This document shows positions 2,939 to 58,338 of a stretch of 64,000 bases of DNA, in pieces; within the stretch, counting starts at the first letter, position 1, and every line of letters starts with the position of its first letter. The stretch comes from a phage. A program made the position numbers and the translations under genes. Below the pieces are notes generated by a model. The model ran no database searches and was not told the DNA's origin. It saw only the letters and a program-made list of their open reading frames with translations. The stretch lies in NCBI GenBank assembly GCA_027263115.1, contig GCA_027263115.1_3656.1. One strand, written 5' to 3'.

Positions 2939-3554
2939 TCTGAATCTGATTTTCTGGAAATCGTTCCGGCTCTCGACCTGAAATTTTTGGGGACGAAATC
3001 GATTTTTCGTTTTCAGAAATGGATTTTTAAAATTTCTATATGGGAATATTTTAGTGGATACTATTTTATAGGAAATTGTTACGGAGGGTAATTAGCGTGC
3101 TAATTAAATTTATTAAATGCGAGGAGTTCTCATTTAGAATTTTGAATGATAATCATTCTCGTTTGCAGAATAACGGGCAGGCCCGGTGATTGTCTCCCGG
3201 CCCCTACTGCCCCGGCTTGTTATTATAGTAACACACAGGACAAAGAAAGCAAGAAGTTTTTGCATAAATTTTTAGACGATAATGATAATCGTTCTCATTT
3301 CATGCAGCGCCCATCCCCGGTGGTTGTCTCCCCCGTCACCGGTGCCTGCCGTCCTTTCGATAGGTATATTTTGCCACCTGGCGGGGCCGCTGTCAACACT
3401 TTTCAAAAAAATTTCTAACCTGATGCGCTGACCGCTGCAACCTGGCGGGGCCAGCCTGGCAGGGCCTAACTGACCAGGTAGGAGAGAATGAAGGCTTGCA
3501 AACCTGGTGGGCCTATGCTATAGGATAGGTAACAATTGAAGAGGAGGTACAAAA

Positions 3555-3731
3555 ATGGAAGGTAATATGATCCCCCTGGAAAATGTAGCTATTAATGACG
3601 CTGAGGCTATCGCCCTGGTTGAAAAGGCTATGGCGGGAGCGTTGGAACATAAAGAAGAGTACGAAAAAATGATGGTTAACCTGGCAGGGGCGGCGGCTGG
3701 AGAATTCTACCCAAAAAATAATTTTAACTAA
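3555..3731 (+). CDS. small hypothetical protein (58 aa)
   Basis: ATG after GAGGAGG; below track cutoff; position confirmed relative to downstream ORF 3817. Confidence 0.5.
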   Translation: MEGNMIPLENVAINDAEAIALVEKAMAGALEHKEEYEKMMVNLAGAAAGEFYPKNNFN

Positions 3732-3734
3732 TGG

Positions 3735-3763
3735 TTGACAGCTCGGACAGTTCTTGTTATTCT
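3735..3763 (+). promoter_or_regulatory. sigma70-type promoter TTGACA-N17-TATTCT
   Basis: -35 consensus, moderate -10, upstream of ORF 3817. Confidence 0.45.
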
Positions 3764-5181: not shown

Positions 5182-5231
5182 AAACACATAAACGGGAAAA
5201 CTTCCCAGAACACACAAAAGGAGAAAACACC

Positions 5232-7756: not shown

Positions 7757-7809
7757 AAAACTCAAGGGGGCAAGACGTTTGCCCCACACAAAACAAAGAG
7801 GAAAACATT

Positions 7810-14244: not shown

Positions 14245-14270
14245 AAGGGGCTTAGGCCCCTTTCTTTTTG
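14245..14270 (+). terminator. rho-independent terminator closing the early array
   Basis: AAGGGGC-loop-GCCCCTT hairpin followed by TCTTTTTG. Confidence 0.65.
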
Positions 14271-14877
14271 TCTGATCTTCCCCCTACCATAAACGGCCCT
14301 ACCTGGCAAGTGGAATAATTGACGAGCCATCAACCCCACACACTGTACAAATATACATGTAAAATAACTATTGCATAACTTTTCATTGTGTGGTAGCAGG
14401 GCTATTTTTACCCGTTTTTCCTTCCAAAATTGCACGTAATGCAGCTATTGCACAAAATTTAACCTGATGCATATCTTCAGTGTCTTGTCAACAACTAAAA
14501 ATCTTTATAAGTCATGCACTTACATAACCACAAAAGCGTGCTCTACGTGAAAAATCGAGTATAACTATAGCCGCCAGATCTCAGAATTTACGTACGCTCA
14601 CCATTCTATAGTCTGCTAAGTATTTATTCCAACCATAGAATAACGGAATAGTCAATACCTGCATAAAATAATTATTCGTGTAAACTGCATAACATAAATC
14701 AGCTTAGGTGTCAACATTTTTCGTAAACAGTCTGAAATTATCACGATGAGTTATCATAAACAGAGAAATCTTTAGTCGTCTAATGTTTACTGTACGTTAC
14801 TATACTAACTGAAATCATTAGATGACTAATAGAAAGATAAGAAATAATTAACAATACAATTATTTTATCTGTAACAA

Positions 14878-15165
14878 TAAGGCAACTATGCAAACGAATG
14901 GCATGGCGCGACGGAGTCGCGACATAATATAAAAGCAGTAACCATCACCCCCGTGATAGTTTGTCTGCAATCTATTAATCAGATCATAGTTGCCTTGTAT
15001 TTAGTTAATCATGACATAACAAGCAAGGCAACTATAGATCTGCTAATAGTTGCCCTGCTTTTATATTATGTCATAGGAACGCCCGAAGGGGTGACCTAGT
15101 CACCTGGCATAGCCAGCGAAAGATTATTAACTTGGTAATAGTTATCATGCAAACGAATGGCATGG
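14878..15165. repeat. nested palindromic region: 18-bp inverted repeat (about 14921-14938 vs 15055-15072), 19-bp direct repeat ATGCAAACGAATGGCATGG x2, AGGCAACTAT/ATAGTTGCC inverted copies
   Basis: Reverse complements and direct copies read directly in the sequence; no ORF with a ribosome-binding site. Confidence 0.65.
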
Positions 15166-15179
15166 CTTATCATCTCTGT

Positions 15180-15420
15180 GTAAACAGTCAATCATGTAAA
15201 CTATTAGATATGTAAACAGTAAAGGGCGTGAACAGTAAGCGAGGGAATAGTAATAGCGTGAATAGTGACAGCGTAAACAGTGACAGCGTAAACAGTCAGG
15301 CATGTCAATTATGTCATATTGTGTCACCATTATGTCACTATTGTGTCACCAGTATGCCCAGTATGTCAATTGAGTCTAAAGTGTCAAAGGTGTCAGACAA
15401 GTTTTTCTCCTCTTTGTCAA
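15180..15420. repeat. tandem short-repeat arrays (GTAAACAGT family incl. 15-mer TGACAGCGTAAACAG x2; then 22-bp TTATGTCAYTATTGTGTCACCA x2 with further TGTCA units)
   Basis: Direct reading; track ORFs here are low-complexity artefacts of the repeats. Confidence 0.7.
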
Positions 15421-16866
15421 GTGCTGCATGAAAAATTTACAAGCTTGTATGGTAGCATTTTTGCGGCCCGTTTACATTCAGTGATGTATGTATAACCCTT
15501 GTTGTGTGGGAGTTTAGACGTCTAGACGGTTGGAAGTCTGCAGGTCAATATCTAATCTATCGGCTGCTAACTATATCCCACACAAATAGTAAGAAATATA
15601 ATTGTTATATGTGTAAACAGTAACTCATGTTATCAATCCCTGTATGGATCGCCAGTGGTGCGCATAATGGGTATTATGTTAAATTGCCCGTAATGATAAC
15701 AGTTCTCACAATGATAGGTATTCTCATTCATCCACACAAAATAGGTTGCAAATGTTGTGCCACTGTGTGAACGGCCTGGCCTATTAATTTCTCTCACTGC
15801 CTCGATATTTGAGGATTGTTATAAGAATGAGAAGTATTCCCATTCCGTCCGCCTGGCAGCGCTCCTGTAGGTCCTGCAAGGACTCTAGCTGAAAGCTAGA
15901 CCCTTCGGGCCTCCCTGTAGGTCAGGTCAAAATCGTGGCAGAACTGAGCCTGTTCAGATATTTCTGGCTGACTCTTCAGGTCTGTGTGGGAAAAGCCAAC
16001 CTCTCCGGCGGGGCAGGGGAGGGAGGTAAATTAAAAAATTTACGTGGTGTATGAAGCGCTCTTCAGGTAAGGCAGGTATTATGTGATGAAACCCTCTTCA
16101 GGCAATGATATTTGTGGGTGTGATATTTGCTGGAAAGCCAGATATGACGGGACTCCCGGCGGGGCAGGGGTAGTACAGACGGGGGAAATATGGGGATGTA
16201 GTTGGGGAAATTGATCAGGCAGGTAGAGTATGGAATATGTTACAAGTATGTTAAATATGGAGGTTGAATATCTGTAGGATTTGTGTGTAAAATCAAAGAC
16301 TTAAGTGGTGTTGTGGTATTTTCTATAAATAATTCAAGTTTAATAGGTAATATTTGCCTCTATCCACTTTGTGTGGTAAACAGATTCAGATGAGATTAGT
16401 TTACAAGTGTATACATAATATACAAATTAAAGATACAAGAAACCCCCCTCCCCCCTTCGGCTACCATTCACCTTTTCCTCTGACTGGTACTTAAACACTT
16501 ATTCAGACTCTTCAGGTTATCACCCATATATCATATGGCAGTGACTGGTGTCCTCCGGCCCCTCTTTCGTCACCCGTCCGCTTCGCCATGCTAATGCCAT
16601 AGCTAATGGTTCGGTTGTTCACCCTGTTCACTCAGGTGTATCTCTATACCCCTTCAAACCGAAGAGAACAGAAAACCCGAATTACTCGGTAAAAGAAAAG
16701 AGAAGAACTTAATTTTATCAGGATAGGCAAGAATGTCAAGGCATGACTGCTCACTAAACAAGCAAACAGTCATGTGTGGGAGGTAAGTGATTGTGGTGGT
16801 AGGAAATTTAGTTGAAAGATGTGTTATAGGTGCTTCCAGCACTTTAGCCGGGCAGCTAATTGTGTG

Positions 16867-17082
16867 TCAGTCCAGCGGTTCATCCTCTACTTCACTGAAA
16901 TCAATGTTCATGGTCTCTTCCCAACCATCGATCTCAGCACAAGAGTGGAGTTCTTTAGGGTTTACTCCCAAAGCCTCAGCAACAGAGTCTATATTTAACA
17001 CCTCTGGCAGGTATGATTCATCGAATTCAAGGTAAATCAGGCCACGAGTGTTGTCAGCTCCACCAAATATCTCTATCTTCAT
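16867..17082 (-). CDS. hypothetical protein (distal end of leftward block)
   Basis: 71 aa, ATG preceded by GAGGAG on minus strand; N-terminus MKIEI like several upstream paralogs. Confidence 0.5.
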   Translation of the reverse strand: MKIEIFGGADNTRGLIYLEFDESYLPEVLNIDSVAEALGVNPKELHSCAEIDGWEETMNIDFSEVEDEPLD

Positions 17083-17203
17083 AAAATCTCCTCTGGGAAT
17101 GAAAGTGTGAACAGGGTTTTATACGTTCTAATGCACAGGAATTATACACGTTTGCCTCTTCAGGCCATGCTTTAGCATGAGGAACCTGTGTGGGCTCGGT
17201 GCT

Positions 17204-18467: not shown

Positions 18468-18773
18468 TTATTCTACAGAGCGTTTGAACAGAATGTCTGC
18501 CTCAGACATGTGCTCAACCTCTTCTTCGATTTTAGCGCGACGTTTTTCAGCCTCATAGCGAATATCGAACTCGGTAGCCACCAGAGATTTGATGAATTTA
18601 GGAGAATACAGGTGATCCTGCTTCTCAACGAGAATGATATCCTTAATGGCATCTTTCAGATCTTTAATCTGAAGTTGGAGTTCTACCAGTTCTTCGATTG
18701 TTTTGCGAAGGCGATCACGCTCTGCAGTGTCAGAAGGAAGAGAGGTGAACAGTTCAACTTTAGATTTAGCCAT
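18468..18773 (-). CDS. hypothetical protein
   Basis: 101 aa, coiled-coil-like, tiled array. Confidence 0.55.
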   Translation of the reverse strand: MAKSKVELFTSLPSDTAERDRLRKTIEELVELQLQIKDLKDAIKDIILVEKQDHLYSPKFIKSLVATEFDIRYEAEKRRAKIEEEVEHMSEADILFKRSVE

Positions 18774-57526: not shown

Positions 57527-57601
57527 GCCCTGTTAGCTTAGTGGATAAAGCAGCGGCCTTCTAAGCCGTTGACACTGGTTCGAGTCCAGTACGGGGTGCC
57601 A
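57527..57601 (+). tRNA. tRNA-Arg (anticodon TCT)
   Basis: Hand-folded cloverleaf: 7-bp acceptor, D-arm GCTT/AAGC, anticodon loop CTTCTAA, T-loop TTCGAGT, encoded CCA. Confidence 0.75.
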
Positions 57602-57605
57602 AATT

Positions 57606-57692
57606 GGGGAGTTATCCCGTAGAGGTAGCGGTGTAGACTGTAAATCTATTGTCATTGCGACTCGGGTGGTTCGACTCCACCACTCCCCACCA
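57606..57692 (+). tRNA. tRNA-Tyr (anticodon GTA), long variable arm
   Basis: Acceptor GGGGAGT/ACTCCCC, anticodon loop CTGTAAA, T-loop TTCGACT, CCA; 87 nt. Confidence 0.65.
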
Positions 57693-57805
57693 AATTTATA
57701 TTTTAGATGCATAAATAATACAGATAATGGCATTGATATTTATCGTCGTTTATACTAGTCACTAACTGCTCGAAAATCAGTGTCATTATCAGTATAATTT
57801 ACAAA

Positions 57806-57896
57806 GGAGGGTAGGGAGCAATGGTGCTCAAGCGGTCTTGAAAACCGTCCCATTGAGGATGACTCGATGATGGTTCGATTCCATTACTCTCCGCCA
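57806..57896 (+). tRNA. tRNA-Ser (anticodon TGA), long variable arm
   Basis: Acceptor GGAGGGT/ACTCTCC, anticodon loop CTTGAAA, T-loop TTCGATT, CCA; 91 nt. Confidence 0.65.
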
Positions 57897-57994
57897 CATT
57901 GTTGACCTTGTAATTAAGCGAAAGCCGGAAGCAGAACCGGATTATCAAATGTTACAGTCGTCATCGCCGACTAGCAACATGGTCAACATACTGA

Positions 57995-58093
57995 GCTAGG
58001 TAAGCCCTTTGGCAAGGGCGAGGATTTTTAATCCTGAAAATAGACGAGGTAGTCGTTGAATACATAGATGGTTCGATTCCATCACCTAGCACC
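57995..58093 (+). tRNA. atypical tRNA-like element (possible tRNA-Lys TTT with about 25-nt insertion, or pseudo-tRNA)
   Basis: Perfect 7-bp acceptor GCTAGGT/ACCTAGC, canonical T-arm GATGG-TTCGATT-CCATC, D-arm GCCC/GGGC, TTT-containing loop; about 99 nt; no encoded CCA. Confidence 0.35.
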
Positions 58094-58098
58094 TTTTT

Positions 58099-58174
58099 GC
58101 TGATGTAGCACAATTGGTAGTGCAATTGATTTGTAATCAATAGGTTGCAGGTTCAAGTCCTGCCATCAGCACCA
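58099..58174 (+). tRNA. tRNA-Thr (anticodon TGT)
   Basis: Acceptor GCTGATG/CATCAGC, D-arm GCAC/GTGC, anticodon loop TTTGTAA, T-loop TTCAAGT, CCA. Confidence 0.75.
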
Positions 58175-58175
58175 T

Positions 58176-58250
58176 GGCCCTGTAGCTGGAAGGTTCAAGC
58201 AAGCGACTCATAATCGCCAGACGGTGGTTCAATTCCACCCAGGGCCACCA
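58176..58250 (+). tRNA. tRNA-Met or tRNA-Ile2 (anticodon CAT), elongator-type
   Basis: Acceptor GGCCCTG/CAGGGCC with paired 1-72, anticodon loop CTCATAA, T-loop TTCAATT, CCA. Confidence 0.65.
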
Positions 58251-58261
58251 AATAGTAGATA

Positions 58262-58338
58262 CTCCGCGTAGCTCAGCTTGGTAGAGCGCCTGATTTGGGA
58301 TCAGGAGGTCGAGTGTTCGAATCACTCCGTGGAGACCA
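58262..58338 (+). tRNA. tRNA-Pro (anticodon TGG)
   Basis: C1-G72 acceptor, D-arm GCTC-AGCTTGGTAG-AGC, anticodon loop TTTGGGA, T-loop TTCGAAT, CCA. Confidence 0.75.

Follow-up and report, generated by a model that had tools for sequence, protein, structure and literature searches.

A conserved 9-mer just inside one genome end of rV5-like coliphages, recurring in two further genera

Short-repeat arrays of the heptamer CCTAAAG, known as SRL and SRR, reportedly flank the terminal repeat of T7-group phages (Dunn and Studier are said to have described them in 1983). Repeated, oriented words also lie near the sequence-specific cuts of some terminases, such as the R sites of lambda cosB and pacL/pacR of SPP1, which are compact and stay within ~100-300 bp of the cut. 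In T7, maturation and packaging are set off by a pause of transcription at the concatemer junction (PMC3276506). Here we describe a 9-mer, CTCTTCAGG, clustered just inside one genome end of an rV5-like coliphage, in a 64,000-nucleotide stretch (64 kb, hereafter the window) of contig GCA_027263115.1_3656.1 from GenBank assembly GCA_027263115.1. Its minus-strand reading, CCTGAAGAG, is the orientation common to the other genera treated below.

The window belongs to a Vequintavirus (rV5-like) coliphage, with 92-97% identity to rV5, Murica, navn and about 120 other records. The 9-mer occurs eight times in it against 0.48 expected from dinucleotide-preserving shuffles, and no shuffle out of 100 reached eight or more; five of the eight are packed, on the same strand, into 1.2 kb. 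These five are exact, lie on the plus strand and stand where the sequence-only reading had placed them, at 15972, 16059, 16094, 16508 and 17156 (copies A, B, C, D and E, respectively; Table 1), with spacings of 87, 35, 414 and 648 bp. The word is real and far beyond chance. That reading had also called the 1.2 kb non-coding, which is right for copies A-D and wrong for the whole, since a 71-amino-acid (aa) gene on the minus strand separates D from E; copy E itself is intergenic. Our literature search found the word in no phage context, its matches being primers and cDNAs only.

The cluster sits in a gap of ~2.6 kb (14263-16866), toward which the gene blocks on either side converge; in the rV5 genome paper this gap is a grey box marked "non-coding", with no explanation given (PMC3606486). 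Several independent GenBank records start or stop inside the gap, and window positions 15396-15853 are exactly positions 1-459 of six independent records (MH752840, MT884008-11, PV763136, MK327930, MT682716). In the linear Gotham record this stretch is annotated at either end as a repeat, and neither Gotham nor EdH4 shows any difference between its two copies; the published terminal repeats measure 459 bp in Gotham (PMC7471380) and 458 bp in EdH4/HdK5 (PMC6563267). The record starts and the end repeats of Gotham and EdH4 together mean that the window holds the direct terminal repeat (DTR) collapsed to one copy. The assembly is a circular permutation whose true virion ends are the cuts at 15853/15854 and 15395/15396 (a slash marks a cut throughout), and the motif cluster is unique DNA just inside one physical genome end, copies A to E lying 127, 214, 249, 663 and 1311 bp from the first DTR base. 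The sequence-only reading had missed this adjacency to the DTR, which is the decisive context. The DTR itself and the rV5 "non-coding" box were already known.

Conservation and gap anatomy were examined in an alignment of 20 Vequintavirus genomes. All five copies are retained on the same strand across these relatives. Substitutions affect 7 of 855 sequence-positions in the 9-mer cores (0.8%) vs 101 of 2280 in the 12-nt flanks (4.4%). For copies A-C the cores have 4 in 513 (0.8%) against 716 in 8987 (8.0%) for the rest of 15940-16440, with a Fisher p of 2.5e-13 that is uncorrected for phylogeny and is to be read as an effect size only. A complete 135-kb relative has eight copies of the word, four in this region, where its copy A is a 1-nt variant, and the others within coding sequence. 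A genome-wide promoter box was rejected on the complete-genome counts and on a degenerate search for box plus -10; with few copies elsewhere and no family of box plus -10, the word is therefore local to the genome end rather than a general regulatory box. We regard it as very probable that the 9-mer is a functional, selected, end-associated cis element.

The word recurs at genome ends in Mydovirus and Seunavirus. Klebsiella phage KPP-1 (Mydovirus) has a 514-bp DTR at 116,316-116,829 and T7-type packaging (PMC9862379), and these published coordinates were our route to an independent genome end; Seunavirus ends were placed by homology. KPP-1 has the architecture of the window, with converging genes and a 1.8-kb gap containing the DTR. 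The genes flanking its gap show no homology to those of the window by tblastn, and its end DNA cannot be aligned with the window by BLAST. CCTGAAGAG is present three times in 8 kb at this end vs 0.06 expected, twice in Mydo, four times in a BIS47-like contig and twice each in 4MG and PVP-SE1, vs 0.04-0.08 expected per locus; it is absent from four control loci of ~14 kb each in these genomes (57 kb in total). Beyond the gap of PVP-SE1 lies gene 183, whose annotation notes similarity to rV5 gp167; this makes the gaps syntenic and allows their orientations to be matched. Copies in the other genera lie on the same DTR side as in the window, mostly in the same orientation. The Mydovirus copies outside the DTR are 0.3-1.3 kb from the cut, and the Mydovirus DTR carries inverted copies 87 and 303 bp from its first base.

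When the words common, in the same orientation, to the gaps of the three genera were compared without bias, CCTGAAGAG ranked first among 9-mers, followed by the CACACAACA/ACCACACAA family (complement of TGTGTGG). The 10-mers common to genera are partly colinear, DTR with DTR and left with left, those of the right side being mostly words that contain the 9-mer. Such colinear islands fit an ancient homology that would have eroded to its functional parts. Protein-anchored retrieval from IMG/VR supplied 3+1 loci only. Scanning IMG/VR for tandem pairs of the word was uninformative, returning >120 unrelated contigs with mostly coding repeats, and locating the region through synteny with a neighbouring 101-aa protein failed, the gene belonging to a DNA-metabolism cluster elsewhere.

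How the locus compares with the T7 arrays was judged against two T7-like contigs, L200 (1-340) and L184 (4767-5560), in which same-orientation CCTAAAG stands right inside the terminal repeat and is followed by a phage promoter, with intervals of 12-26 bp between heptamers on either side of it. The likenesses are a short, exact DTR with fixed ends, same-orientation copies of a word in the adjoining non-coding DNA together with promoters, and a function that is still undefined; CCTAAAG and CCTGAAG, the core of the present word, are 1 nt apart, which may be coincidence. Unlike the T7 arrays, which are dense (12-15 bp) and two-sided, the 9-mer is one-sided and dispersed at 35-650 bp, the other DTR side carrying different repeats (GTAAACAGT and an 11-nt TGTCA array), and rV5-like phages are myoviruses of large size, transcribed by the host RNA polymerase. 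Since the same word is not found on both sides and forms no dense array, the 9-mer is not a member of the SRL/SRR family. It belongs with the sub-terminal cis-acting repeats at DTR genome ends and is not a new principle.

We found CCTGAAGAG in three recurring contexts: the -35/spacer region of promoters, the loop of terminators, and inverted within the Mydovirus DTR. Many copies occupy about -31 to -23 of promoter-like sites, or a terminator loop. A -10 follows at box distance for copy C (N10-CATAAT), copy E (N9-TATAAT), KPP-1 2542, KPP-1 3500 (variant) and Mydo 2299 (N10). The CATAAT of copy C is conserved, with one position differing in 2 of the 20 relatives. Copy E is laid out as CCTGAAGAG-N9-TATAAT (CATAAT in most relatives), GAGGAG and then the ATG at 17082 of the 71-aa gene, which this promoter-like site would drive. 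KPP-1 2538-2566 reads TTGA-CCTGAAGAG-N10-TATACT, then a Shine-Dalgarno sequence (SD) and ATG, and was called as TTGACC-17-TATACT. Both KPP-1 3496-3524, with a 1-nt variant, and Mydo 2295-2323, with the exact word, were called as TTGACC-17-TATTCT, run into the DTR and have no open reading frame (ORF) downstream.

The terminator form, AAGGGAGCCTGAAGAGGCTCCTTT (AAGGGAGCC-TGAAGA-GGCTCCTTT) with a T-run, was called in KPP-1 (2483-2506) and Mydo (1584-1607) and also exists in 4MG and the BIS47-like contig; in PVP-SE1 the loop is a TGAAGT variant, with an exact copy of the word beside it. A 12-mer at copy E, GCCTGAAGAGGC, is found also in the terminator loop of KPP-1, Mydo and 4MG. The extended consensus of CCTGAAGAG is RCCTGAAGAGKC, in which GCCT-GAAG-AGGC makes a partial palindrome with an asymmetric centre.

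The promoter context resembles T4 middle promoters, in which a MotA box near -30 is combined with a sigma-70 -10: at copies C and E and in KPP-1 and Mydo, a 9-bp word replaces or overlaps the -35/spacer, ~10 nt upstream of the -10. Unlike the MotA case, there is no regulon, the word being nearly absent from the rest of the genome, and in Mydovirus a good TTGACC -35 is present beside it. We know of no MotA or AsiA homologues in these phages, though no search was made for them. A second likeness is to T7 phiOR and the concatemer junction (PMC3276506), in that promoters inside one end aim at the DTR with no gene downstream (16739..16712 and copy C in the window, KPP-1 3496-3524, Mydo 2295-2323); unlike phiOR, these are predicted host promoters of sigma-70 type and not phage-polymerase promoters. 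Other known sites were dropped by eye: a sigma-54 promoter (the spacing is GG-N9-GC, not N10), lambda boxA (a resemblance to CGCTCTT in copy B only), and DnaA, IHF, Chi and Type IIS sites (as to the last, the word contains CTGAAG and CTCTTC), all of which fit poorly.

The reading that we favour, tentatively, is that CCTGAAGAG may be the recognition word of a sequence-specific factor acting on a few promoter and terminator modules transcribed toward the DTR. It is preferred because the promoter context is the most frequent, the most precisely registered, and recurrent in unrelated backgrounds. The factor, whether phage-encoded or host, would bind the word and so turn end-directed transcription up or down, and the word would mark the sub-terminal region, on one DTR side and in one orientation, in Vequintavirinae phages. 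The targets in the window would be the 71-aa gene (copy E) and ORF-less transcripts of the 1-kb non-coding stretch (copies A-D). If T7 is a guide, transcription into the concatemer junction could be coupled to genome-end maturation.

Several observations weigh against this reading. Only two of the five window copies have a credible -10 at the right distance, A, B and D having none, and the copy at 4MG 2991 likewise has no -10 at box distance. Elsewhere in the genome, a search for the box with one mismatch plus a -10 revealed no promoter family and no intergenic excess, the one-mismatch matches being mostly sense-strand Pro-Glu-Glu codons; exact copies outside the gap sit within coding sequence and do not form a regulon. 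The terminator-loop copies and the inverted copies in the Mydovirus DTR are not predicted by a simple promoter-operator model. The promoter and terminator calls are consensus matches only, and eight flanking small proteins have no Pfam domain and include no candidate DNA-binding protein.

A second word accompanies the 9-mer. TGTGTGGG occurs 12 times in the window vs 1.8 expected, and CTGTGTGGG does follow the copies at 15972 and 17156 within 25 nt, as had been noted from the sequence, at gaps of 2 and 21 nt; the copy at 16094 is followed at 11 nt by a variant, TTTGTGGGTGTG. In the other genera the 9-mer has a CACACAA-type word (complement of TGTGTGG) at a distance of 2-25 nt, examples being cacacaacaagggagCCTGAAGAG in KPP-1, Mydo, the BIS47-like contig and 4MG, and ccacacaaaggggttgaCCTGAAGAG in Mydo. 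Of the composite bipartite site suggested earlier, the conserved co-occurrence of the two words stands, in the window and in other genera; a rigid bipartite site does not, because the spacing varies (2, 11, 21 nt). CACACA(A/G) directly precedes the SD and start codon of the genes at 5211, 7785, 12741, 13084, 32572, 54638 and 54929, and for this reason it looks like a generic word of mRNA leaders or of translation initiation that is specific to the phage; of its 43 occurrences, 9 are crowded into the ORF-less gap. Its occurrences at 7783 and 12739 share sequence with the 3' arm of a GC hairpin.

The main rival to a transcription factor site is a packaging signal, which we think unlikely though still credible. 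The 9-mers would bind a small terminase or packaging-accessory protein and mark the concatemer junction for cutting into 459-bp repeats, with cuts at TGCYA/GRCGGACRG and ~26 nt after CTTGACAARGAG; they would then be comparable in function to lambda cosB, SPP1 pacL/pacR or the T7 sub-terminal arrays. Confinement of the word to the genome end, on one DTR side and in uniform orientation in three genera, speaks for such a signal, as do the three window copies 127-249 bp from the cut and the inverted Mydovirus copies 87 and 303 bp inside the DTR, which leave the cut bracketed by opposed copies; KPP-1 has been typed as T7-like in packaging (PMC9862379), and T7-like contigs carry their same-orientation CCTAAAG arrays about the terminal repeat. 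The range of the copies argues the other way. Unlike the compact cosB and pac sites they extend over 1.3 kb and across a gene. Two window copies are 663 and 1311 bp from the cut, and in Mydovirus, where four genes intervene, the distance reaches 1.0-1.3 kb, a far greater dispersal than that of known pac/cos sites; several copies, moreover, are integral to promoters and terminators.

The cut sites also have distinct conserved words of their own. Each locus has a single GRCGGACRG, whose position coincides exactly with the first DTR base in the window, KPP-1, Mydo and the BIS47-like contig (DTR boundaries come from the ends of Gotham and EdH4 for the window, and from coverage and PhageTerm for KPP-1). 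It is preceded by TGCYA in both the window and KPP-1, and the full word TGCYA/GRCGGACRG is located at L030 3812-3825, L152 2610-2623 and L151 6329-6342 in three Mydovirus genomes. CTTGACAARGAG precedes the other cut by ~26 nt in both Vequintavirus and Mydovirus. Judged from these sequences, the genome ends carry their own conserved words, distinct from the 9-mer.

The factor and packaging readings are not mutually exclusive. They would meet if the 9-mer were a loading or recognition word of genome-end maturation across an entire subfamily of large myoviruses, its factor coupling transcription by host RNA polymerase, from word-bearing promoters into the concatemer junction, to the terminase cut at TGCYA/GRCGGACRG, a combination that we consider improbable.

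An RNA-level element, in which the word would act as CCUGAAGAG in minus-strand transcripts, as a protein-binding or processing site or within a non-coding RNA from the promoter at 16739, seems to us equally hard to credit. It would agree with the orientation of the word, always that of the sense of the converging genes, with its presence as the exposed loop UGAAGA of a stable hairpin in four genomes, with its co-occurrence with the leader word CACACAA, and with the near-consensus promoter that begins the block at 16443-16800. Set against this, most window copies allow only 1-3 flanking base pairs, and copies embedded in a promoter would be absent from the RNA of that promoter. No Rfam family, hammerheads included, was matched: scans of the gap were empty at gathering score and at E<=5 gave only two chance-level matches. 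Folding of the alignment over 15950-16700, on both strands and relative to column-shuffled controls, gave z from +1.4 to -1.8, which is no excess stability, and the 20 relatives show no covariation beyond one local hairpin (15999-16026). A structured non-coding RNA, which the sequence-only reading had raised together with a covariance check, thus finds no backing here, and a large structured or riboswitch-like element was rejected on the empty Rfam scans and the lack of excess folding stability over the cluster. A hammerhead ribozyme was likewise rejected: although CUGAAGA fits the CUGANGA core, Rfam gives no match and the flanks have neither GAAA nor the helix elements. Outliers in the alignment folds were the DTR border at 15850-15999 (z -3.6/-3.0), where the window variant of the cassette region 15861-15935 is hairpin-rich, and a palindrome by the strong promoter (16700-16849, z -4.3 on the minus strand).

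The block at 16443-16800, which starts with the near-consensus promoter (16739..16712) and holds copy D, is conserved at all positions and has no excess RNA stability, no Rfam match and no convincing ORF. The G-rich (16005-16026) and C-rich tracts pointed out from the sequence are both present. Their proposed long-range pairing finds no support, because the G-tract pairs locally with an adjacent CC(T/C)CTCC arm in every sequence variant. The long-range duplex would be stable at -28.7 kcal/mol, yet the local hairpin is kept and the tracts do not co-vary, the G-tract varying widely among relatives in sequence, loop and length without matching changes in the C-tract. The local hairpin has -12 to -20 kcal/mol on the plus strand and -9 to -16 on the minus strand, where it (16026..15999) is followed by UUGGCUUUU and is terminator-like; the terminator scan did not call it.

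Highly improbable, in our view, is a replication-origin module, in which R-loops or transcriptional activation at the word-bearing, end-directed promoters would prime or activate replication, the models being the T7 primary origin and T4 oriF/oriG. The promoters do point to the G/C-tracts and then to an AT-rich region with iteron-like repeats (GTAAACAGT six times and the 11-nt TGTCA array), but the word itself is outside the AT-rich part, no initiator gene was identified, and the case is purely architectural. GC skew switches at the gap, a change that the rV5 authors attribute to the change in transcription direction (PMC3606486) and that gene orientation accounts for.

Copies B and C lie in a 20-nt duplicated unit (ATGAAGCGCTCTTCAGGTAA and ATGAAACCCTCTTCAGGCAA; repeat family D10), and copies A and C in a larger duplicated module comprising the 9-mer, TGTG(T)GGG, GGAAAGCCA and CYCCSGGCGGGGCAGGGG. 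That the copies have no present function, being remnants of a promoter/terminator cassette that was duplicated, with their similarity owed to recent duplication or gene conversion, is the least probable explanation, already disfavoured by the recurrence of the word in other genera amid unrelated flanking genes and DNA, by its top rank among words shared across genera, and by cores ~10-fold more conserved than the surrounding DNA in the 20 phages.

Table 1. Features of the genome-end region in the window. Copies of the 9-mer are listed by the strand that reads CCTGAAGAG; a dot means that no strand is assigned.
Feature	Position	Strand	Remarks
Variable-number tandem array, 11-nt unit N6-TGTCA	15300..15395	.	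families D4, D17; adjoins other DTR border
Direct terminal repeat (DTR), collapsed to one copy	15396..15853	.	equals record starts; 458/459 bp
Cut-site word TGCCA/GGCGGACGG	15845..15858	-	at first DTR base
Hypervariable cassette region between DTR and copy A	15861..15935	.	bounded by GCRCTCCTGTAGGTC repeats
9-mer copy A	15972..15980	-	exact; kept in 19/20 relatives; extended match GACCTGAAGAGTCA common to KPP-1 promoter copy
TGTGTGGG beside copy A (CCCACACA on minus strand)	15983..15990	-	invariant in 20 relatives
Local GC-rich hairpin (G-rich tract)	15999..16026	.	folds in every variant; then TTGGCTTTT on minus strand
9-mer copy B	16059..16067	-	exact; conserved in alignment of relatives
Predicted promoter over copy C, TTGCCT-16-CATAAT	16105..16078	-	promoter scan
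9-mer copy C	16094..16102	-	exact; conserved in relatives; overlaps -35/spacer of promoter-like site
C-rich tract	16441..16456	.	stays CCCCCCTCCCCC; no co-variation with G-tract
Ultra-conserved block	16443..16800	.	98-100% identity, 20 phages; neighbouring protein genes 92-96%
9-mer copy D	16508..16516	-	exact; conserved; within ultra-conserved block; without -10-like hexamer at right distance
Strong predicted sigma-70-type promoter TTGACA-16-TAAAAT, upstream TG	16712..16739	-	11/12 match; invariant; points to DTR
Last gene of minus-strand unit converging on gap	16867..17082	-	71 aa; no Pfam domain
Promoter-like site with copy E	17135..17168	-	-10 is 9 nt past motif; missed by strict two-hexamer scan
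9-mer copy E	17156..17164	-	exact; conserved; intergenic spacer upstream of last minus-strand gene
TGTGTGGG (CCCACACA on minus strand), 21 nt from copy E	17187..17194	-	seen in alignment of relatives

Within the gap, the DTR is conserved at 89-99% per 50-nt bin and both of its borders are hypervariable in the 20 genomes. The 11-nt TGTCA array has ~3-10 copies among these phages and always ends in ...TGTCA/GACAAG, and the cassette region on the other side shows insertions and deletions of 0-110 nt between GCRCTCCTGTAGGTC-type direct repeats. Annotators' calls of small ORFs in the gap differ and are mutually inconsistent, and no ORF lies over the motif copies.

Other repeats were observed in and beside the gap. 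GTAAACAGT is found six times (GTAAACAG seven) at 14723-15296 and 15613, left of the DTR and inside it, in an iteron-like manner; CAGTTTACAC, the complement in the context of GTAAACAGT, is also common to the Mydovirus and Seunavirus gaps. ATGCAAACGAATGGCATGGC, 20 nt long, stands as an exact direct repeat at 14888-14907 and 15147-15166, and one relative is without the block from the first copy (14888 to ~15075), which may represent a repeat-associated deletion. A doubled word, AAATATCA in minus-strand reading (16104-16128), is invariant in the 20 relatives and is doubled in KPP-1 too (L030 ~3712-3745), ~80 bp before its DTR. The promoter at 16739..16712 is preceded by a perfect inverted repeat, CATGACTG-N17-CAGTCATG (16742-16774).

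A 101-aa protein is encoded on the minus strand at 18468-18773; its identity is 100% throughout Vequintavirus and 42-60% for its counterparts in at least five other genera, and it has no Pfam domain. In some records it is labelled a transcriptional regulator or dsDNA-binding protein, and it is a possible candidate for binding the conserved words. Farther off, in a seven-tRNA cluster (57527-58338), ARAGORN reports a 99-nt 'tRNA-???' at 57995-58093 with a four-base anticodon (atcc), which scores only 37.5 bits with the Rfam tRNA model. Nineteen UNVERIFIED 'Campylobacter phage' records (MG0656xx) are 92-97% identical to E. coli Vequintavirus and are probably mislabelled or contaminant assemblies.

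Phages of the rV5 type are widely used in biocontrol of E. coli O157 and in phage therapy, and are represented in the BASEL collection. Genome-end recognition and processing in large myoviruses with short DTRs is essentially unstudied, and the 2.6-kb box of rV5 has gone unexplained since 2013. The gap is now split into five parts: the DTR, the cut-site words, the variable-number repeats at the borders, the invariant promoter-led block and the three-genus 9-mer. Knowing the cis elements of the end helps phage engineering and the correct placement of genome starts in annotation. If maturation were indeed coupled to the word, this would be a host RNA polymerase version of T7 transcription-coupled packaging, which is so far known only in podoviruses with their own polymerase.

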